DNA from: an uncultured candidatus Brocadiaceae bacterium
GTDB lineage: Bacteria > Planctomycetota > Brocadiia > SM23-32
Direction: 5' to 3'
Length of the DNA stretch: 50,467 bases
NCBI GenBank assembly: GCA_964605915.1
Contig: CAZSET010000002.1
Span: 1-50,467, forward strand
In this document: positions 4,879 to 46,983 of the stretch, in pieces
Layout: every line of letters begins with the position of its first letter
Numbering within the stretch: position 1 is the first letter of the stretch
Program-made: the position numbers and the translations under genes
The notes under the pieces: generated by a model
What the model saw: only the letters and a program-made list of their open reading frames with translations
Databases searched by the model: none
Told to the model about the DNA's origin: nothing

Positions 4879-6432
4879 CTACTCCCTGTCGCGCCCTGTC
4901 GTCTGTGCCATGTACAGGACCGCATCGCCGTCGAACGGCGCGGTCATGGAAAAGTCCGCGCCGCCGGTGACCGGTTCGCCTTTGATTGCCTCGCCGGTGG
5001 AAGGGTTGAACCATTCCACTGCCAAGGTTCCCGAGACAGCCGAAAGGTCCACTGTGACCTCTGGCCCCCTGGGCACATACACCAGTAGTTCCGCCTCTTG
5101 GGCCGTGGTATTCGCCAGGCAATAGCCCGACGAGGAAAGGATGCCCTGAGGCGTCATGGCGGCCAGGTTCACCCGGTCCGCATAGCGGCGGGTGTAGCCC
5201 ATGCTGATCCTGATCGTCTCCCAATAGGGGTCGAGTTCCCCGTCCTTCGGCTTGTTACGCTTGGAGTCGTATTCGAGGTAGGGGTCCATGAACAGCGTGC
5301 TGTTGCCGCGCATGAAATTCTTCCACACCCAGGCGCGCTGGCCATCCAAACCGACCTTCTGAAGCCGGGTGTAATAGAAAGAGTGGTCCGTGTCGTTCAG
5401 GACCACCTTGCGGCCCTTCGCGTCGGGCGGGTCGGGGTCTATCCCCCCGTATCCGCCGGGTGTATCATCATTGCCACCGGGAGATATCCAGTCGGCCGGG
5501 CTGTCGAAGAGGTCGTCGTTCGTGCCGCGAAGAAGGAACGTTATCCCCACCGGATGCTGCTTGGGCTTCTTCGCCTCATATTCATGCACGTAGTTGACCA
5601 GGTGCTTCTCCCATTCCAGGCACCCGCGGGGCACGCTGTGGCACTCGTTAGCGACCTCGTATAGCACGTTGTCCAGATCGTTCACCGTATCCACGATCTT
5701 GCGGACATAGGCTTCCTGCAACGGGGTGATCGCGGGGACGCTCAGGGAATCGAAGTCCATTCCCCGGCCGGTCTTGTTCGGATCCCCGTCAATGCCGTTG
5801 ATGTTGTTGTTCACGTTGAAGGGGTGTCCATCCCAACACCACGGCTTCTTTGAGCCAGCAGGGCCGTTTCCGTCGAAGAACATCACGGAAACGTAAATCC
5901 CCCGGTCCCGGGCCGCGATGACGCGCGAACGGAGCCGGTCGAAGAAAGCCTGATCAAACTTGCCCAGGTCGAACTTGGGCTTCCCGTCCAAAGCCAGGCC
6001 GGGCCCTGTCCGCGGCCACGGGTGAGGCCCCGCCACGTACACCATCTGGTCGTCGTACAGCCCCGTGAAGGAGTACTGGGTCAGTTCCTTTCTGCGCAAC
6101 CGGATGAAGTTGTGGTTGTGGACCTGCAGGAAATCGAGGTAGGCGTCGAAGTCGAAGACTGGCGGGGGATCGGTTGTCCCCTGGTCGTTCTGGTTCGACC
6201 AAGTAAGCGATCCCGTCAGGTAAATGGCCCTGCCCGTGCCGTCCGTGAAGTAGCGTGGGTTGCTGGGCAGGGCCCTGAGCGGTCCCTTGGCTGGGCCGAC
6301 GGGCCGCACTGCCTGCCAGGCCGAAGGGGCGCCAGCGCATGACACGGCCACCAAGATGGAAAGAGCCAGAAAGACGACACTTCCCCCGACGATCAGGTTT
6401 GTCGTGCACATGTCCATGGATTCCTGCGTCAT
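4879..6432 (-). CDS. Secreted clan GH-A (cellulase-like TIM barrel) glycoside hydrolase with a C-terminal beta-sandwich
   Basis: N-terminal TM/signal segment (LIVGGSVVFLALSILVAVSCAG). Motifs PRYFTDGTGRAIYLTGSLTW, HNHNFIRL, GIYVSVMFFDG and NVLYEVANE (an NE acid/base-type motif). ATG 6432 overlaps the GH38 stop (ATGA). The upstream 107 codons of the track ORF are Arg-rich junk. Confidence 0.75.
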   Translation of the reverse strand: MTQESMDMCTTNLIVGGSVVFLALSILVAVSCAGAPSAWQAVRPVGPAKGPLRALPSNPRYFTDGTGRAIYLTGSLTWSNQNDQGTTDPPPVFDFDAYLDFLQVHNHNFIRLRRKELTQYSFTGLYDDQMVYVAGPHPWPRTGPGLALDGKPKFDLGKFDQAFFDRLRSRVIAARDRGIYVSVMFFDGNGPAGSKKPWCWDGHPFNVNNNINGIDGDPNKTGRGMDFDSLSVPAITPLQEAYVRKIVDTVNDLDNVLYEVANECHSVPRGCLEWEKHLVNYVHEYEAKKPKQHPVGITFLLRGTNDDLFDSPADWISPGGNDDTPGGYGGIDPDPPDAKGRKVVLNDTDHSFYYTRLQKVGLDGQRAWVWKNFMRGNSTLFMDPYLEYDSKRNKPKDGELDPYWETIRISMGYTRRYADRVNLAAMTPQGILSSSGYCLANTTAQEAELLVYVPRGPEVTVDLSAVSGTLAVEWFNPSTGEAIKGEPVTGGADFSMTAPFDGDAVLYMAQTTGRDRE

Positions 6433-8993
6433 TCTGCCTGGGGCATTGCCCGCAGCGTGACTATCTCGTGCGGGCGCACCTGGATCGTTACTTCTCCGGA
6501 CTGGACGGCGGCCTCGCCGATTGGCGCGCCGAGCAGATCCACCCGTTCCAGTGCCCCGGCATCCCGCACGCGCACGGTGACCGTCTGCGCCGAACCGCAG
6601 GCCTCGAAGAACCGGACGATGATGCCGCCCGTGTCGGCGTCCGGATGCACGGCTGAGAGTACGACCCCATCGCCGTCGATGTCTACGAAAGGCACGCCGG
6701 CCGGAAGCTGTGGGAGACCGGGCCCTCCAGGGCTGGCGGCGACGACGGGACACACGAGTTCCTGGCCCATCCTTGTCGGGAACGCGAGCGACTCGTCCGG
6801 CGCCGTGAAGCGGAACCGGAATGCGAACTCGAGCCGGCCCGTGTGCTCCCAGAAGAAGCGGGGGTCCGCGCCGCTCGGCGTGGTTCGCATCAGGACGGCT
6901 TCAAGCCCGCCCGCGCCCCAGTGGTAGGTAGCGTGGAGGGAGGCCATCGCCAGCGCGCTGTCCACACGGCGCTGATGGATCCAGAGCTGCAGCTCCCGGT
7001 AGTCGTCCCATTGCTCCGGCGAGCCCATCTCGTCCGGGTTGCGCGGCCCGCTTCCGGGAACCACGTTGGGCCAGTTGTTGCCGTAGAAGGGTGTACCGTA
7101 GAAAACGTCATCCCGCGTAGCAGCGGTCGGCATGCACTGGCGCATCTGCACGCGGTGCCGTCCGTGCCATAGAATCGTCGTCTTCAGGTCCACCGCGTCG
7201 ACCGGAGACTGCCAGACAGTCACCTCCTGCACGACGTGGGCATGGAGGATCGACTTGACCACTCGCGCCGAGGCGAAGAGCGGCCCAGCGGCGGACACCT
7301 CTACGCTACGCACCTCCTGCTGGGCCAGCACGCGCGACTCGTCAACGCGCAGCGGCACGTCGAACGCTTCTTCGTAGACGGCGTAGAGCCGGCCGACCCT
7401 GTCGGAGCCCCAGTCGGCGCCCGTGCGGACGTCGCGCAGCGTGGTCAGGGCGCCCGTCCGCCTGTCGACCGCCACAGCGGCGCCGGCCGCCAGCAGGGCG
7501 ATGCTTCCCTCGTCCACGCGGACACGCGGCCCGACCTGCGTTGCGGCCCTGCGCACAGGCCGGATGGTCGCTGCGGCCCACGCCACGGGCGGCACGGCAG
7601 GGAGCGCCATGACCTCCGTCGCGCCGTCCTCGGCGTTCGAGGTACCCAGGGCCTGAACGGGGATCGCGCTCCCGCGTTCGTCGACGAGTTCCAGTCCGCC
7701 GTCCGTCCAGTCGCCCGGAAGGGCGATCTCCACGGGCTCTGTCCTTGCCCAATTGAGCGGATTGAGGAAGAGCACCGTGCTCTCATTGGCGTCGGGTCCA
7801 GCCAGGACAGCCATGCCGTGCGCGACCATCTCGTCCGCATAGGAGAGGGCGCGTTCCTGGATTGTGCGCTTGTCGAACAGCGTCTGAGCCGCAAAGTTGC
7901 CGGAGAAGTTGTGGTCGCAGATGAAGATGTGCATCTTCCACAGCTCGTCCAGCTCGTCGCCGCGCGGTATGGGGTCGTTGCCCAGATAGTAGAGCCGCTC
8001 GAATAGCGTGCCGAACCACTCGCCCCGCGAAGCGTCGATGGTCTCCAGGCCATACCAGCGCTGGAGCGATGCCAGAAGCTCGGCGGTCAGTAGCCGGCCT
8101 TCCAGTCGTCTGGCGCGCTGCCAGAAGGAAGAGGGCACAGACGTCATGCCCCAGACCGAAGGTATCTCGCCGCTCAGGCGCGGCAGCAGGTCCTCGTGCC
8201 CTTCGTACTCGGCCGCTATTTCGCTTACGGTGCCGAAGCGGAACTCGATCTCAGGGAAGGTCCTGCGGTACTCCTCGATGAACTCGCGTGCCGGTCGGCC
8301 GAAGCGCTTGACGAAGCATTCCATGTCCGCCTGGTCGCCGGCGCCCGCTGAGAGCACGACCTTGCCCAGGGGGAAGCCCTTCAGCGCCTCGTCCGGATCG
8401 ACGGAACCCATCCATCCCCGGCCCTCGTTCAGTTCGGCCGCGTTGCGCCTGAGCTTGTGGAAGTCGTAGTGGTTCGGGTGGCTGAACACCCTCAGAGTGG
8501 TGCCGTCAGGTGCTGCGTAGACCCAAACCTGGCCGTTCGGGAAGATCTTCCGCGAGGTGGCGTAGCAGTCGATCCCCGCCTGGCGGTACATCTGGGGGAC
8601 CTGCGGGCAGAGAGCGGGCAGATCGGCGTGTGCGGCCAGTCGCGTGTCAATCCCGAACCCGTCGCGGCAGACCCGGCGGCCCCGAGCGATGTTGCGGATC
8701 TGGCTCTCGCCCAGCACCAGGTGCTCCATGATGTCCACGTAGGCTGCGCCGATGTCCAGCCGCCCTTCCTGCCAGAGCTTCCTGACCGTCTCCTCGTAGT
8801 CGGGGTGCTTTCCCAGGAAATGCTCGAGGAAGACGGCTGTCTCGAGCAGGAACGACTCATCCGGGTACTCCAGGCAGCGGTCGAGGTACTGCTTGATGAC
8901 GTGGCGGCCGCGCTCGAGGCAGTAGCGGAAGTCACCGATCCAGAACAGGTCGAGGTGCGACTCGTGGATGTAGATGAACTGAGGTCGCGTCAT
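6429..8993 (-). CDS. Glycoside hydrolase family 38 (alpha-mannosidase-like)
   Basis: N-terminal IYIHESHLDLFWIG matches the GH38 HxHxDxxW-type motif. WQEGRLDIGAAYVDIMEHLVLGESQIRN and HADLPALCPQVPQMYRQAGIDCY match the GH38 N-domain pattern. At 854 aa the size fits the family. Confidence 0.85.
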   Translation of the reverse strand: MTRPQFIYIHESHLDLFWIGDFRYCLERGRHVIKQYLDRCLEYPDESFLLETAVFLEHFLGKHPDYEETVRKLWQEGRLDIGAAYVDIMEHLVLGESQIRNIARGRRVCRDGFGIDTRLAAHADLPALCPQVPQMYRQAGIDCYATSRKIFPNGQVWVYAAPDGTTLRVFSHPNHYDFHKLRRNAAELNEGRGWMGSVDPDEALKGFPLGKVVLSAGAGDQADMECFVKRFGRPAREFIEEYRRTFPEIEFRFGTVSEIAAEYEGHEDLLPRLSGEIPSVWGMTSVPSSFWQRARRLEGRLLTAELLASLQRWYGLETIDASRGEWFGTLFERLYYLGNDPIPRGDELDELWKMHIFICDHNFSGNFAAQTLFDKRTIQERALSYADEMVAHGMAVLAGPDANESTVLFLNPLNWARTEPVEIALPGDWTDGGLELVDERGSAIPVQALGTSNAEDGATEVMALPAVPPVAWAAATIRPVRRAATQVGPRVRVDEGSIALLAAGAAVAVDRRTGALTTLRDVRTGADWGSDRVGRLYAVYEEAFDVPLRVDESRVLAQQEVRSVEVSAAGPLFASARVVKSILHAHVVQEVTVWQSPVDAVDLKTTILWHGRHRVQMRQCMPTAATRDDVFYGTPFYGNNWPNVVPGSGPRNPDEMGSPEQWDDYRELQLWIHQRRVDSALAMASLHATYHWGAGGLEAVLMRTTPSGADPRFFWEHTGRLEFAFRFRFTAPDESLAFPTRMGQELVCPVVAASPGGPGLPQLPAGVPFVDIDGDGVVLSAVHPDADTGGIIVRFFEACGSAQTVTVRVRDAGALERVDLLGAPIGEAAVQSGEVTIQVRPHEIVTLRAMPQAE

Positions 8994-9129
8994 GGCTCAG
9001 TTCCCCTCGCGCCGTCCGGCCTGCCCGGCTCGCCCGGCGGCCAGCCGTATGCTCTGCAACGGCGCTCGAATGAAGTGCTGCATCAGGGCTGCCATGCCTC
9101 GATTGGCTGCTGTCACGGGCACGGTCATG

Positions 9130-9790
9130 CCGTTATGAGATAGTCCTCTTGGGAGTTCGGCTTTCGCCATCCGGAGGGCTGTGTCCGACTTCGGAGACGC
9201 AAGCCTCCCGCAGGTTCAGAGACGGCTCTCGGTTCAGAAGGTCGTTTCGGCGCCTCCCGTCGAAGCTCGCCACGTAGCCGTTCTGCCCGGCCTCCCATTC
9301 TGTGTGCATGCAGAGTGTATCGACCACCGCTCTCTGAAGCCAGCGGCGAATCCCCTTCGCCATGAGTTCCTGGCTGTTGTGGTGCTACTGTCCAAGTTGG
9401 AGTGTCTGCCCCGGCCAGTGGCGGCTGGCAGAGGGAACCGGAGCCTGGACCTGCTGCCTGGATGGCTGCCTGGACGGCGCGCCGCCAAGGGGACAGAGAA
9501 GCACCGGAAGGCGGACGCGGCCCTGCGCTTCGTGGAGCGCGGCGGCAAGCTCCTGGCGGCAGAGACAGCCCCTTCTTGCCACCAGTCCGCCGACCCGCGG
9601 AGCCCAGCACCACCTGCGCCCGGCGGACCTTGATCCGGTTGGCGTCATGCCGAAGGACCTTCTGGAGCCGCCGGCCCTCACCGTCGGCGATCTCGCGAAC
9701 ATACAGGCACATCGATTCGTTCCTCCTGACCGGGACAGGCAGACGACCTCCATCATCCCGCCACCGAGAGGAACGAATCCTCAATCTGGC
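9130..9790 (-). pseudogene. Degenerate IS630-family-like transposase N-terminal (helix-turn-helix) remnant
   Basis: EGRRLQKVLRHDANRIKVRRAQVVLGSA resembles the IS630-type xxRRAQIILLSAxG HTH segment. The homology then scatters over all three minus-strand frames (ELAAALHEAQGRV; GIRRWLQRAVVD). No DDE domain or terminal repeats were found. Confidence 0.35.
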
Positions 9791-9830
9791 CTAACACGCA
9801 GCGCCATCGGCACTTACCGACGCAAAGATG

Positions 9831-10130
9831 TTACATCACCTTTCTGGAAGTGGCATTAGGCCCTTCGGGCGCAGGCGCAGTCCCGTGAGATTCGGCACGA
9901 TGCTTCAGGCTCGGGGTATTGCCGACGACGGGGACGTCAGAAGGACTTCCCGCCAGTCGTTCGAGAACTGCCTTCACCTCCGCTTCGCCGCTGGGCAGTA
10001 TCTTGCCGTCGGGCCCGACGAAGAACCACGCAGGAACACTTTCCACGCCGTAGTCTGCTGCAATCTGCGAATGCATGCCCACACACGCATGACGCCAGGT
10101 GAGCTTATGCTCCTGCACGTGCCGGCGAAC
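9831..10130 (-). pseudogene. Thioredoxin-fold (TlpA/ResA-like) C-terminal remnant
   Basis: EVRRHVQEHKLTWRHACVGMHSQIAADYGVESVPAWFFVGPDGKILPSGEAEVKAVLERL matches the C-terminal half of TlpA-type thiol-disulfide oxidoreductases. Just upstream (10130-10330, outside this span) are an in-frame TGA and a possible degraded active-site segment in another frame (FCNAG instead of WCxxC). Confidence 0.5.
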
Positions 10131-10394
10131 CTCAAAGGCCGAATCGTCTCACCGGCACGGTATGAGGCATTGTGGCTCCAGCGTTGCAGAAAGATGCACG
10201 AGGCGCCGGAAACGAGAAGAAGGCAAGGGCAGGGGCTCGTCCAGCGACAGATGCAACGGCGTTGGCTCCCCATTCATCCGGGCAGGTTCCTGCCGAGCCA
10301 CCAGTTTCTCGTGCAGCCCATCGCGCGGGCCGACGGGACGCGCGGCGCCGGCGCATGTTCTGTTGGGTCAGGCAAACCGACGGCGCCGCCGATG

Positions 10395-11663
10395 CTACTC
10401 CGATCGCAGCGCTTCGATGGGCTTCACACGCGCGGCCTCCAGGGCCGGCCAGTAGCCGAAGATGAGGCCCGTAAGGCAACTGACGCCGACCGCGAGCACG
10501 ACGGCCCAGCGCGGCACGAATGTGGGCCAGTCCACGAAGTACGTGATGCTGGACGCTATGCTGTAGCCAAGCAGCACCCCCACCAGGCCTCCCAGGCCGG
10601 TGAGGGTGGCGGCCTCGATGATGAACTGGCGCAGGATGTCGCGCCGGCGGGCGCCGATGGCCCGGCGGGTGCCGATCTCCTTGCGGCGGTCGGAGACGTT
10701 CGAGAGCATTATGTTCATGATTCCGATGCCGCCAACCAGGAGCGATATGCCGGCTATCACACCCATGACCAGCGCCCACGTGTTCTGTGTGGCCTGCTTC
10801 TGGCGCATGAGCTCCAGTGGCACGTGCAGCTCGTAGTCGTCCAGTCGGTGAGTGGCCTCCAGGTAGTTGCGCAGGCGTTCGGCGGTCGGCTGCACGAGGC
10901 GCTCGTCCTCCATTTGCAGGCCCACGCCGTCCAGTTCCACCGTCACGGGTTCGCCGCCCTCGGTGCGGGTGTCGCCCCACATTGACGCCGTTTGCAGCGG
11001 GATGATGACGCAGTTGTCCACGTCGAAGTTCCAGCCGGCCATTACGCCGCCCAGGGGCGCCAGCACTCCGACGCAATTGAACACCTGGTCGGCCATGCGG
11101 ACGGTCTCGTTAAGGGGGTCGTGGTAGGTGAAGAGGGCGCGCGCGGCCGTCGCGCCCACCACGCACACGCGCTTGGAGTCGCCCTCGTCCAGCTCCGTCA
11201 GCAACCGTTGGCGCAGGCCGTCCGGCCGCGTGGTCGTTTCGGAGAGGCGCGCGCGCATCAGGCGGAAGAAATCCGGTTCCACGCCCAGGACCGTCAGGTC
11301 CAGGTTGCGTCCCGACCGGGAGTAGAGCTTCGTGCGCAGATTCTGGACGCCGACGGCGTAGCGCACGTAAGGGAAGGTCTGGCGGACGTGCTCCAGGTCC
11401 CGCCGTCGCAGGCCGTATATGCTGCGGTCCACGCCGACGTCTTCGGCCTGGGCCTGGGACGGACGCACGGAGCGCGCGACTATGTTCTCGACGCCCATGG
11501 CCGTGTAGCGCGAGACCTCGGCCTGGCGCGCACCTTCGCTGATGGAGATCATGGCCACCACAGAGGCCACGCCGAAGATGATGCCCAGCGCGGCCAGCGC
11601 GGAGCGGAACTTGTGCAGGGACAAGTCCAGCAGGGCCAGCCGCAGTGTCTCGAACAGACCCAT
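10395..11663 (-). CDS. MacB-type ABC transporter permease (FtsX family with a large periplasmic domain)
   Basis: N-terminus LRLALLDLSLHKFRSALAALGIIFGVASVVAMISISEGA. About 230 aa of periplasmic domain. The C-terminal FtsX helices include GIMNIMLSNVSDRRKEIGTRRAIGARRRDILRQFIIEA. The start shares one nucleotide with the upstream ATPase stop (TGATG at 11661-11665). Confidence 0.9.
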   Translation of the reverse strand: MGLFETLRLALLDLSLHKFRSALAALGIIFGVASVVAMISISEGARQAEVSRYTAMGVENIVARSVRPSQAQAEDVGVDRSIYGLRRRDLEHVRQTFPYVRYAVGVQNLRTKLYSRSGRNLDLTVLGVEPDFFRLMRARLSETTTRPDGLRQRLLTELDEGDSKRVCVVGATAARALFTYHDPLNETVRMADQVFNCVGVLAPLGGVMAGWNFDVDNCVIIPLQTASMWGDTRTEGGEPVTVELDGVGLQMEDERLVQPTAERLRNYLEATHRLDDYELHVPLELMRQKQATQNTWALVMGVIAGISLLVGGIGIMNIMLSNVSDRRKEIGTRRAIGARRRDILRQFIIEAATLTGLGGLVGVLLGYSIASSITYFVDWPTFVPRWAVVLAVGVSCLTGLIFGYWPALEAARVKPIEALRSE

Positions 11664-12403
11664 CAGACGAGCCTTCCGTCGTGCATGTCCACCACGCGTT
11701 GCACCCGTTTACGATAGGCGGAGTTGTGCGTCACCAGCACCAGCGTGCGCCCGGCCGCAATCAGGTCGTCGAATACCGCCAGTATCTCGTCGCCGGTTTT
11801 CTCGTCCAGGTTCCCGGTCGGCTCGTCGGCCAGCAGGAGCGGCGGGTCGCATGCCAGCGCGCGGGCTATCGCCGTGCGCTGCATCTCGCCGCCGGACAGT
11901 TCGCGCGGGCGGTGATGCATGCGGCTGCCCAACCCGACCCGCTCCGCCAGGCGCGTGGCACGTTCACGGCGTTCGGCGCGCGGCACGCCCCCGTAGGCCA
12001 TCGGCGCGGCGATGTTGCCGGCTACGTCCAGTTGAGGGAACAGGTTGAAGGTCTGAAACACGAAGCCGATCTGCGCGTTGCGCTGTCGGGAAAGGCGGTC
12101 GTCATCGAGCCGCGAGACGTCCTGCCCGCACAGGCTGTAGCTGCCGGCCTCGGCTGTGTCCAGCAGTCCTATGATGTTCAGGAGCGTGCTCTTGCCGGAG
12201 CCGGAGGGTCCCATGACGGCCACGTATTCGCCGGGCTGCACGGTCAAAGTTATGCCCTTAAGCACTTCAAGCCGACGCGAGCCGAGCATGTAGTGCTTGT
12301 GGATGCCGTGCATCTCGATTACGGGCGCGGTCACCTCGGGGTCCCCTCTGGGGCCTGAATCCTTCCGCCGCCGGTCGTGCCGGTTCCGCCCCGGCCTGGT
12401 CAT
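11663..12403 (-). CDS. ABC transporter ATP-binding protein (MacB/LolD-type)
   Basis: Walker A GPSGSGKST, Q-loop, ABC signature LSGGEMQR, Walker B LLLADEPTGNLD and H-loop VTHN. The start overlaps the HlyD stop (ATGA at 12400-12403). Confidence 0.92.
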   Translation of the reverse strand: MTRPGRNRHDRRRKDSGPRGDPEVTAPVIEMHGIHKHYMLGSRRLEVLKGITLTVQPGEYVAVMGPSGSGKSTLLNIIGLLDTAEAGSYSLCGQDVSRLDDDRLSRQRNAQIGFVFQTFNLFPQLDVAGNIAAPMAYGGVPRAERRERATRLAERVGLGSRMHHRPRELSGGEMQRTAIARALACDPPLLLADEPTGNLDEKTGDEILAVFDDLIAAGRTLVLVTHNSAYRKRVQRVVDMHDGRLV

Positions 12404-14112
12404 TCCACGCCGCCCCTGCGGGGAGTGCCCGAGCCGGCCTGCCGCGCGGTTCCCATGCGCCTGCCGTCGGTTCCGCCGCCGGCGGGGCCGGGCAGGTCGG
12501 CTCCGCCCCTGCGGGGCATCTCGGCGTCGGCCTCGGGGCCGGCGACGGGCGTGTCGGGCTCGACCTCTGCGCCTTTTTCCTCCTGGCGCCGGCTCACCTC
12601 GGCAGGCCGCGTGAGGGCGACGCGCTCTCCGACTTTAAGACCCTCGAGGATCTGCACGTAATGGTCGTTGCTCTTGCCGGTCACCACCTCGCGGCGCTCA
12701 AGCTTCTCCTCAGCCCCCTGAACGAAACAGACCGTTGTGCCCTCGATGTTGTACACGGCTTCTATGGGCACGATAGTGGCGTCGGGCACGGTTTCGGCAA
12801 CGATTTGGACCTCAGCGGTCATCCCGCTGGCCAGCCGATCGTCTGCCTTGTCGATGGCGATGGCGGCTCTGTACTTCTTGGGCCCCCCGCTGGGCGGCGT
12901 CTTCGCGAAGTTCTCCAGGGTGTTCACGACGCCCTCTATGTCCATGTCGGGTATGGCTTCTATGGTGACCTGTGTACGTGCGCCCTCGGCTATGCGGTAC
13001 CGGTACTCCTCGGCGATGTATATGTCTATCTCGAAAACACTTTCATCGGGGATGGTCATCAGGTTCATCCCCGCCCAGCTCTGCATTCCCACCTTGATGT
13101 CTTCGGGGCTCGGCCGGCTGCGATCCGTATCGCCGTAGAGCAGCCGGCCGGCCACGGGCGCCGTTACATCGGACAGTGCCAGCATCTCGCCCTGTTCCCT
13201 GATCGTCTCGTTGGTGCGCTCGATCTGTTGCTGAAGCGTGCGGACCTCCGTCTTCTGGTTCTCGACGCGGTTCACGGCGTTGACCTTTGTTCGCTGCATG
13301 TCCAGTTTGGCGTTCGTCACGGCTTCGGCGCGCTTCTCCAGCGTCTCGGGGTACTCGTAGGAGCGGAACTTCTTCTGGTTGAGGCTGGCGTCGTCGTATG
13401 CCTTCTCGGCTGTTTCGACGGCCTTAAGGGCCTTCTGCACGTTGGCACGGGCCTTCTCCTGTGCGGCCTCGTCGCCCATGAGTTGCTCGTCGGCCTCCCG
13501 CTGGATGTCGGCGTAGTCCTTGCGCGCCTGCTTGAGCAGTTCAGTCGCGTCGCGCTTGGCGTCAATCAGGGAGCGCAGCCTGTTGGGGGCATCCTCCTCG
13601 CGGTAGCGGCGCAGGCTCTCCTCGGCATCGCCTAGTCGCGTCTCGGCCGCAGCCACGACGGCCGCCTTGGCGGACTCTTCGATCTCTATGTTGAGGATGG
13701 CAATCTCGAGCTTCTTCTCCTGTTCGACCAGTTGCTCCTCGGCCTTGAGGATGGCATCCTCGAAGCCCTGCTTCTCGAACTGGATGATCAGGTCGCCCTC
13801 CTCCACAAGGTCGTCCTGCGGGCGCAGCCACGCGATGGTCGCCTGACTGCGCCGGCTCCCGAAGGGCACGCTGATCTTGACATTGCGCGTGGCGCGCAGC
13901 GTGCCCCGCTCGCTCAGGCCGATGACCAGGTCCCGGCGGCGCACGGTGTAGAACCGCACCTCCTGGGCCTCGGCCGCTTCGATGCTCGCCACGCCCGCCA
14001 GCCAGCCGATAACCCGGGACGGTCCCCACAGGGCCGCCGCGAAACCGAAAACCAGGCCCGCGGCAATGAGCAGCTTGGCAAGGACTTTCGCGACGCGTTT
14101 CATGGCTCTCAT
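12400..14112 (-). CDS. HlyD/MacA-family periplasmic adaptor with a long coiled-coil hairpin
   Basis: N-terminal membrane anchor (KVLAKLLIAAGLVFGFAAALWG). Biotinyl-lipoyl-like segment (ATIAWLRPQDDLVEEGDLIIQFE). About 200 aa of heptad-like E/K/A-rich sequence, then beta-barrel/MP segments (TAPVAGRLLYG, ASGMTAEVQIV). Gly/Pro/Arg-rich C-terminal tail. ATG 14103 is an alternative start. Confidence 0.88.
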   Translation of the reverse strand: MRAMKRVAKVLAKLLIAAGLVFGFAAALWGPSRVIGWLAGVASIEAAEAQEVRFYTVRRRDLVIGLSERGTLRATRNVKISVPFGSRRSQATIAWLRPQDDLVEEGDLIIQFEKQGFEDAILKAEEQLVEQEKKLEIAILNIEIEESAKAAVVAAAETRLGDAEESLRRYREEDAPNRLRSLIDAKRDATELLKQARKDYADIQREADEQLMGDEAAQEKARANVQKALKAVETAEKAYDDASLNQKKFRSYEYPETLEKRAEAVTNAKLDMQRTKVNAVNRVENQKTEVRTLQQQIERTNETIREQGEMLALSDVTAPVAGRLLYGDTDRSRPSPEDIKVGMQSWAGMNLMTIPDESVFEIDIYIAEEYRYRIAEGARTQVTIEAIPDMDIEGVVNTLENFAKTPPSGGPKKYRAAIAIDKADDRLASGMTAEVQIVAETVPDATIVPIEAVYNIEGTTVCFVQGAEEKLERREVVTGKSNDHYVQILEGLKVGERVALTRPAEVSRRQEEKGAEVEPDTPVAGPEADAEMPRRGGADLPGPAGGGTDGRRMGTARQAGSGTPRRGGVE

Positions 14113-15479
14113 TGGATGAGTCCCATGTCTGCCGGTTCGTCAGCAGGTTCGGGTTCGGGCTTCGGCGGCGTCAGGTCGATGATGATGGGCTCGAGCGGCT
14201 CGTAGCTGCGCCTGAGCGGGAGGACCATCGGCTCCTGCTCGCCGCCGTCGACCTCGTCGGCCTCGTCCTCCCGGCCGTGGCCCAGCCGCGGTATGGCGCG
14301 CTCGACGCCCTTGTCCAGGTTCTCCAGCCCGGCCCCCGGCACGTGCATGATGAACCCGCCCGGGCGCCCTTCGTCCAGGATGTTCACGCGCAGGAAGAAC
14401 ACGAGCATCGTCTTCACCTCCGTGTCGCGCGTGCTCTGGAAGAGCCAGCCCACCAGCGGCATGTCGCCCAGGAACGGCACCTTGCGCAGAACGCCCCGCC
14501 GCTCGCTGCGCAGCAGACCGCCGATGGTCAGCAGCTCGCCGTCTTTCACCGAGAGAGTCGTCCGCACGCTGCGCACGGCCACGATGGGATTGGAGACACC
14601 CGACTCCCCGGCCGCGGTGTAGCCCGTCACAGCCGAGACCTCGGGATTGATGTCCAGCCGGGCCATGTCCTCCGTCACCTGCAGCGGTGTGACGTACAGC
14701 TTGATGCCGACGCGCTTGAAGATCGTCGTCGTGCTGACCGACCCGCTCACGACGGTCGCGCTCTGGATGGGCACGTCCTCGCCGGTCACAATGCTGGCCT
14801 GGTTGCCGGCCGCGACGATGATATTCGGCGAACTGAGGATCTGCGCATTGCCCTCCGTGACCAGCAGGCGCACGTAATGGTCCAGCGTGTAGTCGTCGGA
14901 GATGGACCGCACGTTCAGCCGCAGGCCCATGGACGGCGTCGGCGACGAACCGGGCGTTTCCAACGTGATCTCAGAGCCCTGCAGCAGGCGCGAATCCCCA
15001 CCCATTACGTTCTCAAAGATGTGGGAAAGCTCGAACTCGCGGTCGCTGTCGAGCGTTATCTCCACCACGCGGGACTCCACGAGCACCTGCGGCGAGGGCT
15101 GGTCCAGGTCCTGCAGCACGTTCAGCAGGCCTGGCACCTCGCCGCTGGAGTCGTTCACCAGCACGCGGTTCAGCTTCGGGACGGCCTCCACGATGCCTTC
15201 GGGACTTAGGAACGACTCGATGGCATCGCGCAGCATCTCGCAGTGGCTGACGCGGCAGTAGTAGATGAGCGTGCTCTTGTCGTCGTTGATGATGATCTTG
15301 GGCGGCAGCGGAGCCGGTGACACGCGTTGCCCGGCCTCCGTCGGGTCGACCGGCGCAGCATAGCCTGATACTCTCGTGTCGACCTGGATGTCGCGCTTCA
15401 GGTCGGTCTGAACGCAGCCGATGGACAGGGCGATTGCCAGCAGTGCTGCAACAGGCAAGGCACGGATTTGGCGCATCAT
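14109..15479 (-). CDS. Secretin-family outer-membrane lipoprotein (one secretin-N-like domain plus a secretin domain)
   Basis: Lipoprotein-type signal MMRQIRALPVAALLAIALSIGC. N-domain-like MLRDAIESFLSPEGIVEAVPKLNRVLVNDSSGEVPGLLNVLQDLDQPSPQVLVESRVVEITLD. Secretin core SSPNIIVAAGNQASIVTGEDVPI, FKRVGIKLYVTP and VPFLGDMPLVGWLF. The stop overlaps the HlyD start (ATGA at 14109-14112). Confidence 0.85.
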   Translation of the reverse strand: MMRQIRALPVAALLAIALSIGCVQTDLKRDIQVDTRVSGYAAPVDPTEAGQRVSPAPLPPKIIINDDKSTLIYYCRVSHCEMLRDAIESFLSPEGIVEAVPKLNRVLVNDSSGEVPGLLNVLQDLDQPSPQVLVESRVVEITLDSDREFELSHIFENVMGGDSRLLQGSEITLETPGSSPTPSMGLRLNVRSISDDYTLDHYVRLLVTEGNAQILSSPNIIVAAGNQASIVTGEDVPIQSATVVSGSVSTTTIFKRVGIKLYVTPLQVTEDMARLDINPEVSAVTGYTAAGESGVSNPIVAVRSVRTTLSVKDGELLTIGGLLRSERRGVLRKVPFLGDMPLVGWLFQSTRDTEVKTMLVFFLRVNILDEGRPGGFIMHVPGAGLENLDKGVERAIPRLGHGREDEADEVDGGEQEPMVLPLRRSYEPLEPIIIDLTPPKPEPEPADEPADMGLIQ

Positions 15480-16087
15480 GTCTGCTGTTGCTCTCCCAAG
15501 GTTGACGGCCACCCCCGTCGCCAGGGCTGGTGGCATGTGGTATTCTCTTGTGAAGCGGCAGGTTCCAGCGCCTGCTGCGTAAGGGCGCAGAGATTCCAGG
15601 CATTTCCGAGACTCCCTACATTATAGCGACTGCAGCGCAGAACTCTAGCGCATGGCCTCCCCTGCAACCAGAGCACGCGCCGTGCTGAGCGTACAAGGGT
15701 GCCGAAATGGCTGAAAGGCCTCCGCCGCCGGAGGCCGATGCTCCAGCGTGCTGCGCGGCCTGTCGCGGTTGCAGTAGTACCCCGACTGCTCCGCAGGGAC
15801 CTTCGCCCACGTGAGCGTATCGGGGATCCTTCTGAAGAGCAACTCGTCCATAGCCGCGCTCAGCGAAGGGATGTCAGCGGGACCGTCACCCGTGCCCTTG
15901 TTCCAACCCAAGCTTCCACCGAGTCCCGGACCCGTCAACGGCCAACTCCGGCAGCACCTCCAGTGCCCGCGCCACGTCCAGCAGGCTGGGGTCGGTCTAG
16001 ACGTTTGTGGGGAGGTCCAGCGAGGAGTGTCGCAGCCCGCACCCCCGAGGCCATGCGATGGCGGACATCGGCACGCCACCGTCGGGC

Positions 16088-16116
16088 TTGACAATGCTCG
16101 AACGCGGGGCTATAGT
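16088..16116 (+). promoter_or_regulatory. Near-consensus sigma70 promoter of the catalase gene (TTGACA-N17-TATAGT)
   Basis: TTGACA at 16088-16093, an exact 17-nt spacer, and TATAGT at 16111-16116, about 85 nt upstream of ATG 16201. It stands out against the GC-rich background. Confidence 0.6.
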
Positions 16117-16200
16117 CCCCTTGGTGCGCTCAGATCGCCAGCAATAGCCACATGTGTGGAAGATGGTATCAAATGGTTCTTGCTGAGAGGGGGGCCGTAG

Positions 16201-17724
16201 ATGGCGGACGAGAAGAAGAAGCTGACGACTGCGTCGGGGATGCCGGTTGACGATGACCAGAACACGCTGACCGCCGGGCCGCACGGGCCGGCCCTGATGC
16301 AGGACGTGCATCTGATGGAGAAGCTCGCGCACTTCAACCGCGAGCGCATTCCTGAGCGTGTCGTGCACGCCAAAGGTGCGGGAGCCCATGGCTACTTCGA
16401 GTGTACGGCCGAGATGTCGAAGTACACGCGGGCCAAGTTCCTTTCTGAGGTGGGCAAGAAGACTGAGGTCTTCGCGCGGTTCTCAACCGTCGGCGGCGAG
16501 AAGGGATCGGCCGATGCTGCGCGCGACCCTCGCGGATTCGCGGTGAAGTTCTACACCGAAGAGGGCAACTACGACATGACCGGCAATAATACGCCGGTCT
16601 TCTTCATCCGCGACCCGCTGAAGTTCCCCGATTTCATCCACACCCAGAAGCGCGACCCGGCGACGAATGCGCCCAACCCCGATATGTTCTGGGACTTTCT
16701 GTCGCTGACCCCGGAGTCGATCCATCAGGTCACCATACTGTTCTCGGACCGCGGCACGCCGAAGGGCTTCCGCCACATGAACGGCTACAGCAGCCACACC
16801 TTCAAGTGGTACAACGCCCGCGGCAAGTACTGCTGGGTACAGTACCACTTCAAGACCGAGCAGGGGATCCAGAACCTGACACGGGAAGAGGCGACCCGGA
16901 CGGCCGGCGAGGACCCGAACCACGCCACTTGCGACCTCTATGACGCCATTGCGAGGGGCGAGTATCCCGCCTGGCGCGTCTGTGTCCAGATCATGCCGCC
17001 CGAGGATGCCAAGACCTACCGCTGGAACATACTCGACGTCACGAAGGTCTGGCCCCATGCGGATTACCCGCTCGTCGAGATCGGCCGGATGGTGCTCGAC
17101 CGCAATCCCGAGAACTACTTCGCCGAAGTCGAGCAGGCGGCATTCAGCCCCGGCAACTTCGTGCCCGGGATCGCGGCATCGCCCGACAAGATGCTTCAGG
17201 CGCGCATCATTTCTTACCACGACGCTCATCTCCACCGCCTGGGCCCGAACTACCAGCTTCTGCCGGTCAACGCTCCCAAGGCACGCAAGGCGAGTAACTA
17301 CCAGCGCGACGGCTACATGCGGCTGAATGACGGCGGTGGAGCAGGCCCGAACTACTGGCCCAACTCCATGGGGGGACCCGCACCCGACCCGTCGGTCGCG
17401 GAACCGCCCATTGACCTGGAGGGTCAGGCGGCGCGGCATCCCCAGGAGCTTACCGACGATGACTTCTTCCAGCCTGGTGAGCTCTACCGTCGTGTGATGA
17501 GCGACACAGACAGAGACCACCTGATCGGGAACATCGTCGCTCACCTCGGCGGGGCGCAGAGACGAATCCAGCTCCGCCAGACGGCGCTCTTCCTCAAGGC
17601 CGATCCGGACTACGGTCGCCGCGTCGCAGAGGGTCTCGGCCTGGACGTGAAGAAGGTGGAGAGCCTGGCCGCCATGTCACAGGACGAGAGGGTCAAGGCT
17701 ACGGCCGCAGGGACTGAGCCGTAG
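16201..17724 (+). CDS. katA: Monofunctional haem catalase (small-subunit type)
   Basis: [60 protein letters not shown] and [47 protein letters not shown] are textbook catalase core sequences. 507 aa. Purine-rich RBS GAGAGGGGGG. Confidence 0.97.
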
Positions 17725-21479: not shown

Positions 21480-21857
21480 ATGAATCTGACGAGCGCAGAA
21501 TGGCACGTGATGAACGCACTCTGGCAAGACTGGCCGGCCACGGCCCGGGAGATCGAGGCGAGGCTTTCTGACGAGGTCGATTGGGCCTACACCACACTCC
21601 GATCGGTCCTTGCCCGATTGGAGGAGAAGGGGGCTGTGAAGGAGTACAAGAGGAGCAACGTCAGTTTCTACGAGCCCATCCTGACCAGGCGGAAGGCTCG
21701 CATGGCAACGCTCCAGTCGGTGGTGAGCGAGGCTTTCGAGGGCGCTTTCGGACCGCTGGTGCACTTCCTTGTCGAAGAGGACGCGCTATCGGAGGAAGAA
21801 AGACGGAAGTTGATGGACGCACTGGGGCACGAAAAAGAGGGGGCCGACGATGACTGA
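21480..21857 (+). CDS. blaI: BlaI/MecI/CopY-family winged-helix transcriptional repressor
   Basis: LTSAEWHVMNALWQDWPATAREIEARLSDEVDWAYTTLRSVLARLEEKGAVKEYKRSNVSFYEPIL is the canonical Penicillinase_R-type fold sequence. The gene overlaps the downstream M56 gene by 8 nt. Confidence 0.92.
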   Translation: MNLTSAEWHVMNALWQDWPATAREIEARLSDEVDWAYTTLRSVLARLEEKGAVKEYKRSNVSFYEPILTRRKARMATLQSVVSEAFEGAFGPLVHFLVEEDALSEEERRKLMDALGHEKEGADDD

Positions 21858-24800
21858 GACATTGAACAGAATGGGGGAGGGGTGGTGGTCCTGGGTGGGC
21901 GCGATGGCCTGGCAGGTGGCCCTGCTCGCGCTGGTGGTGTGGCTCATCGACCTGGTGCTCCGGCGGCGCGGCTGGCCGCAGGTCCGCTATGCCTTGTGGG
22001 CGCTGGTTCTGGTGAAGCTGTTCATTCCGCCGACCTTTGCCCTCCCCAGCAGCGTCGTTAGCCGCGTGCTCCCGGGCGGCGAGCAGGCAGTTGCCGTGGC
22101 TGCGCCGGTGCGCGTGGAGCTTCCCGAGCCGGCGGAGCCGGCGGCCTTCCAGCCCATGGACCGCGCGGTGTCGGCGGTTCCTCAGGCCGAACCACTTGTT
22201 GCATCCCTCGTGCCCGCGGAGCCCCCTGCACCTGCAAGCAGACCATCCCTCTCCCTGAAAGCGTCGGCAATGCTCGGAAGCGGTACCGTAAGTCTCTTGC
22301 TTCTTGCCTGGCTCATCTGTCGGGCGCTCAGGCTGCGCAGGCTGATCCTGGCTGATTCGACGAAGATCACACCTGACTGGATCAACGGCGTGGTGGCGTG
22401 CTGTGCTCGCCGGCTCGGCCTCCGGGCGGTTCCGCCCGTCGTTGTCACCGAAGGGGTGAAGAGCGCGGCGGTCTTCGGCATCTTTCGGCCGGTCCTGCTG
22501 TTGCCTGTGCAGGCACTTGAGGATGCCTCTGCTGAGCGGACCTGTCCGCCGAAGCCAGAAGGGCGAAGGCGCATGGAACATATCATGCTCCACGAGCTTG
22601 CCCACGTGAAGCGCGGCGACCTGGTGATGAACACGGCGCAGGCCCTGGTGCAGGTCGCCTTCTGGTTCCACCCGGCTGTCTGGCTGGCGGGCATGCACCT
22701 TCGCCACCTGCGGGAGCTATGCTGCGACGCCAGCGTGTCCAGGCTCCTTCGCGAACGCACCTCCGAGTACCGGGAGACCCTGGTGGACGCTGCCCGCCGG
22801 ATGATCTTCGGCACGGAGAGGCCGGGCCTGGGCCTGCTGGGGCTCTTTGAGAACGCGAGCCGCCTGCGCCAGCGCCTGCATCATCTGGAGAAGCCGTCCT
22901 GGAAGCACCGACGGCTGAAAGTCATCGCCTCCCTGGCGGCGGCCGCCCTGATGGTCGCCCTGATCGTGCCTATGGCGCGGATGGCGCGCGCGGAGTCCTC
23001 TCTCCTGGAAAGCCTGCAGAGCGGCGCAGGCGAGGCAAGGGGACGGGCGGCGTGGCGTCTGCTTGAATCGTGCCAACAGGGCCGAGTCAGTGCGAGGGAT
23101 GCCGAGCGGATTGCCCAGGTCCTGCTGCCCCGGCTCGGCAGCGCCGCCGACAGGCTCACGTCTCGGACCGAGGCAGGGCCGAGCATCTATGGTTCGGAGA
23201 TCGCCCTCGCGTGGGGCCTGATAACGAACGACCTGGTGGCACAGTCCACGGCGATTGAGCTTGCGCACAATCTCGGGGCGGCCCGGTGTCAGTACGTGCC
23301 CGGGACGGGGGCACACATCGAGCTCCGTGGGAGACTGATGCGAGCGCCGGTTGGCGTGGTGATGCACCGGGTTCTCCGTGTCAGGGGCATCGACGGACAG
23401 GCCGTGGACGAGAGGGGCCTTGAGCTCTTCATCCTTCTCCATCGCCCATCACCCGTCACCTGGTCGCACCGGGAGCCGCTGGCGTTGACTCCGGCTCCCG
23501 CCCGATCCCTGGCCGTTGAAGTGGATACTGCCTTCTATCAGTTGCCACCGGAATTGATGGACGCTCTGCCGGCCAGCGCGAGATCGTTCTCCCCGGAGAA
23601 GATCGCTCTGGTGAGAGAAGCCCTCGGGGGCACCCAGGCACGGAAGCTTGTGGCGTACACCGACCATGCCCTGCTTACTGCGGAATCGGGATGGCAGAGC
23701 GCCCTCGCGCTGGAACCCGACGAGGCAAGCCCGCCGGCCGAGAGGCCGAGGAAGTATGCCGGCACGCTGCCCAACGGCGTGACCGTGGAGCTGGTCGGCG
23801 TCTCCTACCATCCGTCCCAAGGCGAACAGTGGTGGCGGCCGGACGGCACAACACTGGCAGAAGCGCCGTACGACAAGATGGACGGAAGCGTATCGGGTGG
23901 GCCCGGCGATCCTGTGAAGGCCTACGAATTCGCCCTCCGGACTGGAAATACAACGAACGGCATCGCCAGCGTCAGATGCAGATTCGAACCGAATGCGGGT
24001 TCTTCGGCAAGCGACGGCTCCCCTGGGAAAGGTGAGGGCGAACTGACCAACGTCCGGGCAATTGCTGCGACGTTGCCAGAGGGAGCCTCGAGGTGCACAA
24101 TGCGCGTGGGGGTGGCGGGCACCGCATGGCAGACTCTGGCAAGTGCAGACGGGAAAGGCTCTGCCAGCATGGGCGGAAACCTCGGCTCGGCTGCCTTCTC
24201 GGACGCATACGAGGTTGACGGAGAGGTCCGGATCGTCGTCACGGCGGATCAGTATGGGGCCGACTACCGCGTCCTTGCGACCACCCGGTCAGGCCAGACA
24301 AGATCTGCCGCCGGCACGAGCTTCTCCAGGGTGGGTGGCGCTGTGCAGATAGCGGCCGCTTTCCCCGGGTTAAGGCGGGAGGACGTTCAGGCATTCTCCC
24401 TCCAGACGCGCCTCTTCCAGCGCGTTGAGTTCCGGAACGTCTCGCTGGAGCCGGGGCATAGGACGGACGTGCAGGTCGTCGAACCTGAAACAGAGATCAT
24501 CCCCATCGGGACATCGCGTGTGCAGCCAAAGATCCTGGAGACCGTCAAGAAGCCGCAAGAGTTGACCTTCGGCCCTGTGATCGAGCGCACGGTCAGGGGC
24601 TCTCGTCAACGCACGGGATGTTACATTGATTTTGATACGGGGGGATTGCTGAGCCCGCCTTCCCAGGATACCCCGGGGGATGCCGTGGCTTTCTCGGCCT
24701 GGATTCAAGAGGACGGCATTGACGCCGTCGGTATAGCTTCCGAGAGCGAAAGACGCTTGGGGGGCTTCCACCTCGTAGCGCTTCCCGTTGCGAACGAACG

Positions 24801-32395: not shown

Positions 32396-32551
32396 CGCCC
32401 GATCCTCCGGCAGCGCCCGAGGGCGGTCCCGCCCATGCCGGGGCCAGCGGAACCGCTCCACTGCCGCCGGCCTGATGCTGGCCAGCGCATCCGGCAGCCA
32501 TGCATCCCGGGACATGCTCGTGACGGACGGACGCGTCAGCAACGCCGGTCG

Positions 32552-35302: not shown

Positions 35303-35536
35303 ATGCAGGAACTCGTCGAGAGGGCGCAGCGGGGCGATTTGAAGGCCTTCGGCCAGTTGGTCGAACGCTTCCAGGACGCCGTCCACGAGCATGCGCACGT
35401 CGGGTTTTCCACCTTCGGTGCGGCGCCTGCGCCCGGCAGATGTCTTGACGCTGACCGGGCCGGCGCTACAATAGCCGGCGTTAGTTCGATGGTGCTGCAA
35501 CTCGCACGCAACGCAATGAAGGGCTTTGGGCGTTGA
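35303..35536 (+). pseudogene. ECF sigma factor N-terminal stub (only ~30 codons of homology)
   Basis: MQELVERAQRGDLKAFGQLVERFQDAV is a typical ECF region-2 leader. Homology then stops, with no region 2.2-2.4 or region 4. Confidence 0.5.
35445..35472 (+). promoter_or_regulatory. Candidate promoter for the RM-like module (TTGACG-N16-TACAAT)
   Basis: TTGACG at 35445-35450, 16-nt spacer, TACAAT at 35467-35472, about 170 nt upstream of ATG 35643 and inside the sigma-factor stub. Confidence 0.45.
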
Positions 35537-35564
35537 TCCCTCGTGGTGTGCCTGTTGGCGATCG

Positions 35565-35593
35565 GGGCCGGACAGGGTTGAGCCTGTCGGCCC
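35565..35593 (+). other. Stable hairpin in the 5' leader of the RM-like module
   Basis: GGGCCGGACAGG / CCTGTCGGCCC gives 11 bp with one bulged G and a 6-nt loop. There is no U-tract, so it is not a classical terminator. Confidence 0.4.
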
Positions 35594-35642
35594 GACAACA
35601 CGAATCCAGTCGGCATTCCAGTTCCAGGCGATGGGGGGACAG

Positions 35643-46870: not shown

Positions 46871-46983
46871 AGTGTACCGGCCCGACCTGCCGAAGTGAAG
46901 CGCAACGTTCCCGTGCTTCCGCCGCATGGTGAGCCGCTCACGCCAGTTGCCGGATCCGGGCGCGGTACTCGGACGCCAGGTGC

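Follow-up and report, generated by a model that had tools for sequence, protein, structure and literature searches.

To our knowledge, secretins have been found only as the gates of type IV-filament machines (type II secretion systems or T2SS, type IV pili or T4P, Tad and competence systems), of injectisomes and of filamentous phages. In the reviews consulted on type I systems and on tripartite pumps, ducts of the TolC family are the only outer-membrane partner mentioned (PMC8277102, PMC4446572, PMC12646458). Among such exporters, the MacAB-TolC system of Escherichia coli (PDB 5NIK, 9QGY) shares with the locus described here a permease with MacB_PCD and FtsX domains, an ABC ATPase, and an adaptor with a transmembrane helix, lipoyl, beta-barrel and membrane-proximal domains and an alpha-hairpin. 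This locus, located at 10395-15536 of a 50,467-nucleotide (nt) stretch of DNA from an uncultured candidatus Brocadiaceae bacterium (contig CAZSET010000002.1; hereafter, the window), consists of four co-directional open reading frames (ORFs) on the minus strand, which encode, in this order, a secretin, a MacA-like periplasmic adaptor or membrane fusion protein (MFP), an ABC ATPase and a MacB-type permease. A preliminary description of the sequence had reported these four genes, and both the ORFs and Pfam profiles matching each of the four products confirm them. In comparison with MacAB-TolC, there is a secretin and not TolC, the ATPase is separate instead of fused to the permease, the hairpin is longer, and its tip lacks the RLS motif. 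We consider it probable, from comparative sequence data, that the four genes encode a single envelope-spanning exporter of the MacAB-TolC type, in which a secretin with a single N-domain would replace the TolC-family factor.

A type VII ABC transporter paired with an outer-membrane protein other than TolC has also been proposed for the BBJ25-MacB-like cluster of Borrelia (PMC13078400). In that case, however, the partner is an Omp85 protein, a LolA-like carrier takes the place of an MFP tunnel, and the system is a single plasmid locus and not a phylum-spanning cassette. In the open-access papers and preprints searched, no account was found in which a secretin has an MFP or a MacB-type pump as its partner, including the 2021 Chemical Reviews article on tripartite pumps and recent papers on type VII ABC transporters, in agreement with the preliminary description, whose author knew of no characterised example.

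Conservation of the secretin-adaptor linkage

A homologue search with the secretin delimited a discrete clade of proteins of ~350-520 residues scoring >150 bits, compared with ~100 bits for classical GspD and PilQ. The locus set, for which one genome per GTDB species was scanned, comprises 79 loci and was searched by tblastn with the four window proteins. In all the clade loci (53/53), with secretin identities of 29-95%, an MFP gene lies directly downstream of the secretin gene. These loci come from Planctomycetota/Phycisphaerae/Tepidisphaeraceae, Lentisphaeria/Victivallales, Kiritimatiellia and Verrucomicrobia/Opitutaceae, so that the gene order, whose conservation had been left for checking, is kept across at least four classes or phyla of the Planctomycetes-Verrucomicrobia-Chlamydiae (PVC) lineage. 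The flanking genes are unrelated from locus to locus, and two members that are ~54% identical show the same four-gene order among wholly different neighbours. Since the order secretin-then-MFP recurs without exception in different species with unrelated flanks, chance is excluded. Moreover, the secretin and MFP genes share a 4-nt stop/start overlap in 20 of 50 loci, and the same is true of the window's cassette.

The full order secretin-MFP-ABC-permease is present in 30 of the 53 loci, with seven others ending at a contig edge, three reading secretin-MFP-permease and 13 keeping the pair alone. A further full cassette, L087, was found independently through its MFP (P0130, which follows a secretin). 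A neighbour-joining tree places all the MFP-linked secretins in one clade, and the nearest outsiders lack an MFP. Secretins of 25-30% identity from Nitrospirota and Myxococcota also occur without an MFP, and L039 is a longer, unrelated secretin. As for the possibility that orthologous secretins sit in T2SS or pilus clusters, they lie outside them, and only much more distant ones are found there, such as L060, which belongs to a PilM-PilN-PilO-AMIN-PilQ cluster. No pilus or T2SS gene (pseudopilin, pilin, GspE/PilB ATPase, GspCLM/PilMNOP) was detected either in the 50-kb window or in the Pfam-annotated clade loci L001, L003, L041 and L087.

The invariant unit in these loci is the secretin together with the adaptor, and not the whole four-gene set. 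In this regard, the pair could be what really functions as a unit, namely a conduit across the periplasm served by interchangeable inner-membrane transporters, with the MacB pump as one energiser among others, encoded in trans elsewhere. A secretin-adaptor duct would then be a better name for the system than a variant of MacAB. Such a conduit would fit the unbroken pairing of both genes as well as the lack in cis of ABC and permease genes from 13 loci forming a nested subclade, and adaptors do serve ABC, RND and MFS transporters (PMC4446572, PMC8277102). In the loci with the pair alone, a search downstream of the MFP revealed no transporter of another kind. However, the 30 loci that keep the four-gene order are spread over all major branches and look ancestral on the tree, the adaptor is nearest to MacA in sequence and fold, its paralogues linked to TolC-family proteins are also paired with MacB, and lost linkage does not prove lost partnership; altogether, we regard the interchangeable conduit as unlikely. 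The nested position of the pair-only loci suggests that the ancestor had the full cassette and that this subclade later lost the linkage to the pump.

The pair-only subclade (L040-L046, L048, L050-L052, L054) shows some gene neighbours of its own. In 13 loci (e.g. L041, 7017-7850), the gene immediately upstream of the secretin encodes a 277-residue protein with a zinc ribbon and a phosphotransferase system EIIA-2 (PtsN-like) domain, and in nine the MFP gene is succeeded by convergent genes for a radical-SAM protein and an esterase. These flanking genes probably reflect lineage synteny, and the EIIA-like gene could be a regulator.

A secretin in the slot of a TolC-family gene

Paralogous cassettes provide a decisive comparison for the first gene. 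Two MFPs 23% identical to that of the window, P0135 and P0134, belong to cassettes in which an outer membrane efflux protein (OEP) of the TolC family comes first, followed by MFP, ABC and MacB, with overlapping OEP and MFP genes (L084/85, L089/90). These uncharacterised cassettes of Sedimentisphaerales/Phycisphaerae (L084, L089, L090) have the same gene order, the same tight packing and a homologous long-hairpin MFP (22-23% identity), but their first gene encodes an OEP of 555-567 residues. A third MFP, P0136, lies in an OEP-MFP-MacB arrangement (L088), and P0138 stands alone. The pump genes of the OEP-type cassettes are 48-51% (ABC) and ~35% (permease) identical to those of the window, a similarity equal to that of the distant secretin-type cassette L087 (55% and 37%). 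The secretin gene therefore occupies exactly the slot of the TolC-family OEP gene in the paralogous cassettes.

The preliminary description had also stressed that no TolC-like partner was present. This holds in cis, as there is no OEP gene in the 50-kb window and no homologue of the L084 OEP was recovered by tblastn in any secretin locus, but it does not extend to the wider group: TolC-family proteins are abundant in Phycisphaerae, and the L084 OEP has homologues in Sedimentisphaerales, Phycisphaerae and Planctomycetota that bear the name TolC family protein. Given that both types of cassette are found in one class, the secretin would be an alternative partner and not a substitute forced by a missing TolC.

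Two observations concern the neighbourhood and the diversity of related cassettes. In L084 (10969-13590, 15033-15890) and L089 (11073-13766, 13839-15455), a convergent gene for a CBM6/CBM35/PA14 protein of ~870-900 residues and a 538-residue gene product resembling an extracytoplasmic function (ECF) sigma factor are found after the cassette; the CBM6/CBM35/PA14 protein may serve as cargo or as a partner under common regulation. On a 20.7-kb contig (P0131, JGI 3300047160), a 774-residue protein without any Pfam match is encoded 26 nt upstream of a long-hairpin MFP of the 197 class, which is followed by a MacB permease. This protein, placed in the OEP/secretin slot, may represent a third kind of outer-membrane partner.

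The adaptor and its hairpin

The adaptor is recognised by Pfam HlyD_3 (E 1.7e-5) and by the NCBIfam models RND_mfp (2e-18) and MacA (3e-10), its best PDB profile match is MacA (5e-27), and its best Foldseek match is MacA within MacAB-TolC (4.8e-23). The AlphaFold2 model, with a predicted local distance difference test (pLDDT) score of 80, comprises an N-terminal transmembrane helix as in MacA, a lipoyl domain, the alpha-hairpin, a beta-barrel, a membrane-proximal domain and a disordered tail. Two helices, 115-210 and 215-313, of ~96-99 residues each and modelled with a pLDDT of ~95, form a hairpin spanning ~145 Å (at 1.5 Å per residue), longer than the 127 Å hairpin of EmrA (PMC4158417). This hairpin is exactly 199 residues long in 49 of 51 orthologues at ~30% identity, an invariance that indicates an assembly of fixed geometry, as judged from the alignment, and does not identify the partner.

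A profile search of 1.84 billion representative proteins recovered 7,839 clusters at E<=1e-30, the best 150 of which are all full-length. The region equivalent to residues 113-315 measures 203 residues in every secretin-linked adaptor and 195 or 233 in the OEP-linked ones (233 in the cassettes of Sedimentisphaerales/Phycisphaerae mentioned above). Among the top 150 representatives, lengths of 195 and 203 form sharp peaks, and a broad tail extends over 217-283. The idea that a long hairpin compensates for the missing 100 Å alpha-barrel of TolC is refuted by these values, as the OEP-linked relatives lie on both sides of 203 and long hairpins are common among the 7,839 representatives. More generally, hairpin lengths in this MFP family (P0141-P0289) appear quantised, as if the partner or the width of the periplasm set a discrete ruler length.

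The RLS motif (R-x3-L-x6-S), which serves in tip-to-tip docking to TolC, was found at the hairpin tip of none of 51 secretin-linked MFPs, and its strict form occurs in only 7 of 112 relatives of the OEP class. In its place, an empirical tip signature, aromatic-T-x2-L-x3-4-[FY], was adopted together with a comparison of charge. The signature is present in 38/57 and 14/55 members of the OEP-type length classes, compared with 1/36 in the 203 class and 0/50 in loci with a confirmed secretin, and the tips of secretin-linked hairpins are more acidic than those of the OEP type. Moreover, a tree based on 266 columns outside the hairpin groups 29 of 30 MFPs of the secretin length class in one clade, apart from the OEP-linked classes, which is consistent with a single partner switch.

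A short secretin with a single N-domain

The first gene of the cassette passes the secretin profile check by a wide score (Pfam PF00263, E 8.9e-40, 136.5 bits for a cut-off of 27.5). Its start at ATG 15479, with a GGGAG ~11 nt upstream, yields a clean 22-residue signal, MMRQIRALPVAALLAIALSIGC, ending in the lipobox cysteine, as expected from the lipoprotein signal originally noticed. This cysteine is conserved in most Planctomycetota members of the clade, to which the lipobox is limited; those of Kiritimatiellia, Lentisphaeria and Verrucomicrobia carry ordinary signal peptides. An AlphaFold2 model of the monomer, built on 28 family members, shows the signal peptide, a disordered linker, an N-domain (61-125), the barrel (131-368) and a disordered, acidic and proline-rich tail. 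The N-domain folds as beta-beta-alpha-beta-beta-alpha with a pLDDT of ~90 and, although Pfam Secretin_N stays under its cut-off (E 1.5e-4, 22.3 bits compared with 28.2), it is exactly the one secretin-N-like domain that had been anticipated. The N0, N1 and N2 domains are missing from the model, and no S-domain is recognisable.

In sequence, the best PDB match of the secretin is GspD of the T2SS (1.7e-53), and the best Foldseek matches are PilQ and GspD (~1e-20). It shares with both proteins the canonical barrel core and an N3-like domain, but has a single N-domain, and the members of its clade always adjoin an MFP gene and never pseudopilin, GspE/F or PilMNOP genes. The secretin scores under every NCBIfam equivalog cut-off, which rules it out as an equivalog of GspD, PilQ, MshL, HofQ or SctC; for the GspD model TIGR02517, it reaches 166 bits for a cut-off of 351 and covers positions 298-592 of 600. 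Public annotations of the clade members vary among 'hypothetical protein', 'secretin N-terminal domain-containing protein', 'GspD/PulD' and 'CpaC'. Short, self-contained secretins are also found in HxcQ, RcpA of the Tad system and pIV of phage f1, with RcpA and pIV being detectable homologues of the window protein. Those secretins, however, serve pseudopilus, pilus or phage assembly with unrelated ATPases, and the lipidation seen here occurs in Planctomycetota members only. Lipid anchoring of a secretin can make a separate pilotin unnecessary.

The N0-N2 domains are the contacts of T2SS and T4P secretins with their inner-membrane platforms. Their absence from the model would leave this secretin without such contacts, which counts in favour of an exporter built on the neighbouring pump. 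The opposite view is that the genes are merely co-located, the secretin serving a T2SS, type IV pilus or Tad-like system elsewhere in the genome and the pump using a TolC-family protein encoded at another site. The macAB, acrAB and emrAB genes of E. coli lack tolC in cis as well (PMC8277102), and both the abundance of TolC-family proteins in Phycisphaerae and the proximity of the secretin core to GspD and PilQ in sequence would agree with it. Nevertheless, mere co-location would have to account for an adjacency that is kept over phylum-level distances, often with 4-nt overlaps, for the lack of pilus or T2SS genes near any clade member, for a secretin devoid of N0-N2 that sits exactly in the OEP slot of paralogous cassettes, and for the monophyly of both partner lineages. 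We consider it very improbable.

The pump

The ATPase matches Pfam ABC_tran (E 1e-33) and, among NCBIfam models, the N-terminal half of MacB (4.8e-67) and LolD (2e-61). For the permease, Pfam detects MacB_PCD (E 4.7e-29) and FtsX (E 1.5e-21), and the comparison gives 2.3e-47 with the C-terminal half of MacB, ~1e-6 to 5e-8 with LolC/E and 1.7e-4 with DevC. Both proteins match the MacB model NF007826 under its equivalog cut-off, as a result of the protein being split and divergent. The scores with LolC/E are only 22-32 bits for cut-offs of 362-540, and an MFP is present besides, which speaks against membership of that family. Type I secretion of the HlyBD kind does not apply either: the permease is of the FtsX/MacB type, without an ABC_membrane domain, and no TolC is encoded in the window.

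In another explanation, the cassette would act in envelope biogenesis rather than in secretion into the medium, with a MacB-type extractor taking lipoproteins, glycolipids or another lipid-anchored polymer out of the inner membrane, from where they would reach the outer membrane or the cell surface by way of adaptor and secretin. LolCDE, DevBCA and the proposed Borrelia BBJ25-MacB-like system would be its analogues. The extraction of lipidic substrates is common among type VII ABC transporters (PMC12646458, PMC8333309), and a MacB-like pump with an Omp85 partner has been proposed to deliver lipoproteins (PMC13078400). A housekeeping role would also be in line with the lack of a conserved cargo gene, with the unrelated flanks and with one recovered locus per representative genome. 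However, the match of the permease to MacB (2e-47) is far above those to LolC/E and DevC, and no gene for a LolA-like or other lipid carrier is linked to the cassette. Moreover, no lateral gate that would open to the membrane is known for secretin pores. A role in envelope biogenesis thus seems rather improbable to us.

Proposed mechanism and points against it

That a hybrid exporter uses a secretin in the place of TolC, as first put forward in the preliminary description, is supported by comparative genomics: the gene content of the cassette, its conserved linkage, the equivalence of the slot and the monophyly of both partners all agree with it. From this, we infer how docking, the direction of transport and the cargo might be. 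By analogy with substrate uptake and mechanotransmission in MacB (PMC5985334, PMC8277102), the MacB-type permease and its separate ATPase would push a substrate from the periplasm or from the outer leaflet of the inner membrane by ATP-driven mechanotransmission. The substrate would then enter the tunnel of the oligomerised adaptor, whose hairpin barrel of ~145 Å would reach the ring of secretin N-domains or enter the vestibule, and would leave through the gated secretin pore. Such a system could have originated once, in the PVC lineage, when a secretin gene displaced the outer-membrane factor (OMF) gene heading an OMF-MFP-ABC-MacB cassette. Its co-existence with TolC-type cassettes points to a distinct cargo, which would probably be macromolecular and encoded elsewhere. 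Going one step further, and with the balance slightly against us, the cassettes might constitute an unrecognised, PVC-confined secretion class, where a secretin is opened and fed by a MacB-type pump via a 145 Å adaptor tube acting as a static 'pseudopilus substitute'; without pseudopili, needles or phage filaments, it might export folded periplasmic macromolecules in one step.

Several points weigh against this exporter. A first one is the mismatch of symmetry and size: MFPs are hexameric, and the rings of secretins have 12-15 subunits and a lumen of 55-75 Å. As for the earlier suggestion that a wide secretin pore would allow bulkier substrates, the adaptor tube may limit the size of the cargo. 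Second, as already noticed for the flanks, no cargo gene is obvious in the 50-kb window, and the clustering of 1,879 flanking ORFs from 54 loci revealed no conserved cargo or accessory gene, the four cassette genes being the only ones that recur apart from the lineage-specific synteny of the pair-only subclade. Third, the scans for promoters and terminators were uninformative as to transcription as an operon. Fourth, in 13 loci (the nested subclade and L036) the 2-8 kb around the secretin-MFP pair are devoid of ABC and MacB genes, so that linkage of the pump is not obligatory. Finally, long hairpins are a trait of the whole MFP family and not specific to secretin-linked members, and the lack of an RLS motif, once taken as evidence against TolC docking, has been discarded as weakly diagnostic, the strict motif being rare in OEP-linked relatives too.

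Gene calls and organisation of the cassette

The boundaries of the genes and of the domains discussed above are listed in Table 1. The barrel core of the secretin includes the motif VPFLGDMPLVGWLF. Regarding the junctions, the preliminary description had joined all four genes by start/stop overlaps. Two of them hold: in the ATGA at 14109-14112 the secretin gene ends and the MFP gene begins, and the TGATG at 11661-11665 likewise joins the end of the ABC gene to the start of the permease gene. The third, an ATGA at 12400-12403, is present in the DNA, but is probably not the true start of the ABC gene: the first 23 codons after it are poorly conserved with respect to the 95%-identical relative L005, and the ABC orthologues begin ~4 residues ahead of the first conserved strand ('VIE/IVEL'). 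For these two reasons, GTG 12334 appears the likelier start, which would leave a gap of 65 nt between the MFP and ABC genes.

A scan of the minus strand detected no internal terminator within the cassette. A search for promoter consensus sequences in 15537-16200 yielded a sole site, on the plus strand and facing the catalase gene, and in an Rfam scan of the cassette the only match was a sub-threshold one to CcsR1 (10304-10394, plus strand, 25.9 bits compared with 65.3).

Table 1. Coordinates of the cassette genes, their main domains and the adjacent intergenic region in the window
Feature	Positions	Strand	Details and basis
Short secretin gene	14109..15479	-	456 residues from ATG 15479; alternative upstream ATG 15536 gives 475 residues; longest ORF 14109-15536
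MacA-like periplasmic adaptor (MFP) gene	12400..14112	-	570 residues
ABC ATPase gene	11663..12403	-	246 residues in the maximal ORF; probable start GTG 12334 gives 223 residues
MacB-type (type VII ABC) permease gene	10395..11663	-	422 residues, with periplasmic core domain
Signal peptide with lipobox (…ALSIG-C22)	15414..15479	-	Read from the sequence
Single secretin N-domain, N3/KH-like	15105..15299	-	Residues 61-125; AlphaFold2, Pfam Secretin_N
Secretin beta-barrel core	14376..15089	-	Residues 131-368; AlphaFold2, Pfam, invariant alignment columns
Adaptor alpha-hairpin	13174..13770	-	Residues 115-313; AlphaFold2, orthologue alignment
Divergent secretin/catalase intergenic region, presumed promoter region of the cassette	15537..16200	.	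Sequence; function predicted

Genomic context

The cassette is flanked on one side by a divergent catalase gene (16201-17724) and on the other by a gene-poor stretch of 1.4 kb, followed by a GH38 glycosidase gene (6429-8993). The gene-poor stretch (8994-10394) has no convincing ORF. A minus-strand ORF of 95 residues in it (9831-10118) contains the sequence VPAWFFVGPDGKIL, reminiscent of a TlpA/redoxin-type thiol-disulfide oxidoreductase in its C-terminal part; the ORF has no Pfam match at E<=0.001 and may be the remnant of a frameshifted pseudogene.

Genes related to carbohydrates are dense in the window (6429-8993, 29382-31217, 32552-34996, 44132-46990) and include GH38, GHL10, a GH9 with CelD_N/CBM30 and a CBM_4_9 protein. 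An FG-GAP repeat protein is encoded at 31268-32542. This density of glycoside hydrolases and carbohydrate-binding proteins fits a polysaccharide-degrading lifestyle, as of a planctomycete resembling Phycisphaerae. An unusual pairing of domains is found in the 1,853-residue protein encoded at 21850-27411 (plus strand), which begins with a BlaR1/peptidase M56 sensor domain and has an LptD_N/LptA-like domain at its C-terminus. An island of low GC content (35526-39397; GC 0.56-0.585 compared with ~0.65 elsewhere) encodes an 817-residue protein in which an AlwI-like restriction endonuclease domain is fused to an N6 DNA methylase (type IIG/IIL-like), followed by a 473-residue protein without a Pfam match, and is probably a horizontally acquired restriction-modification module.

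The contig L005 (CAYUDW010000094.1), which is 95% identical over the cassette, bears in its record the label 'uncultured candidatus Brocadiaceae bacterium'; all other close relatives of its genes go under Phycisphaerae, Tepidisphaeraceae or Planctomycetota. For L005, the label probably stems from an error of binning or classification.

Biological significance

If confirmed, the cassette would represent something new, a tripartite ABC exporter whose partner in the outer membrane belongs to another superfamily, and perhaps, though here we remain hesitant, one deserving a class name of its own among secretion systems. It would mean that tripartite ABC pumps are able to recruit a secretin, which displaces their TolC-family factor, that there is a new way of opening a secretin gate, and that a hexameric alpha-barrel docks onto a ring of 12- to 15-fold symmetry, which would be a structural puzzle. 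The presence in one class of secretin-type and OEP-type cassettes with homologous pumps offers a natural experiment on the specificity of adaptors for their outer-membrane partner. In more practical terms, the labels 'GspD' and 'CpaC' on genes of this clade mislabel genomes as encoding components of T2SS or Tad systems. An exporter of this kind could also explain part of the poorly understood export of proteins and polymers in polysaccharide-degrading Planctomycetota, Kiritimatiellia, Lentisphaeria and Verrucomicrobia.

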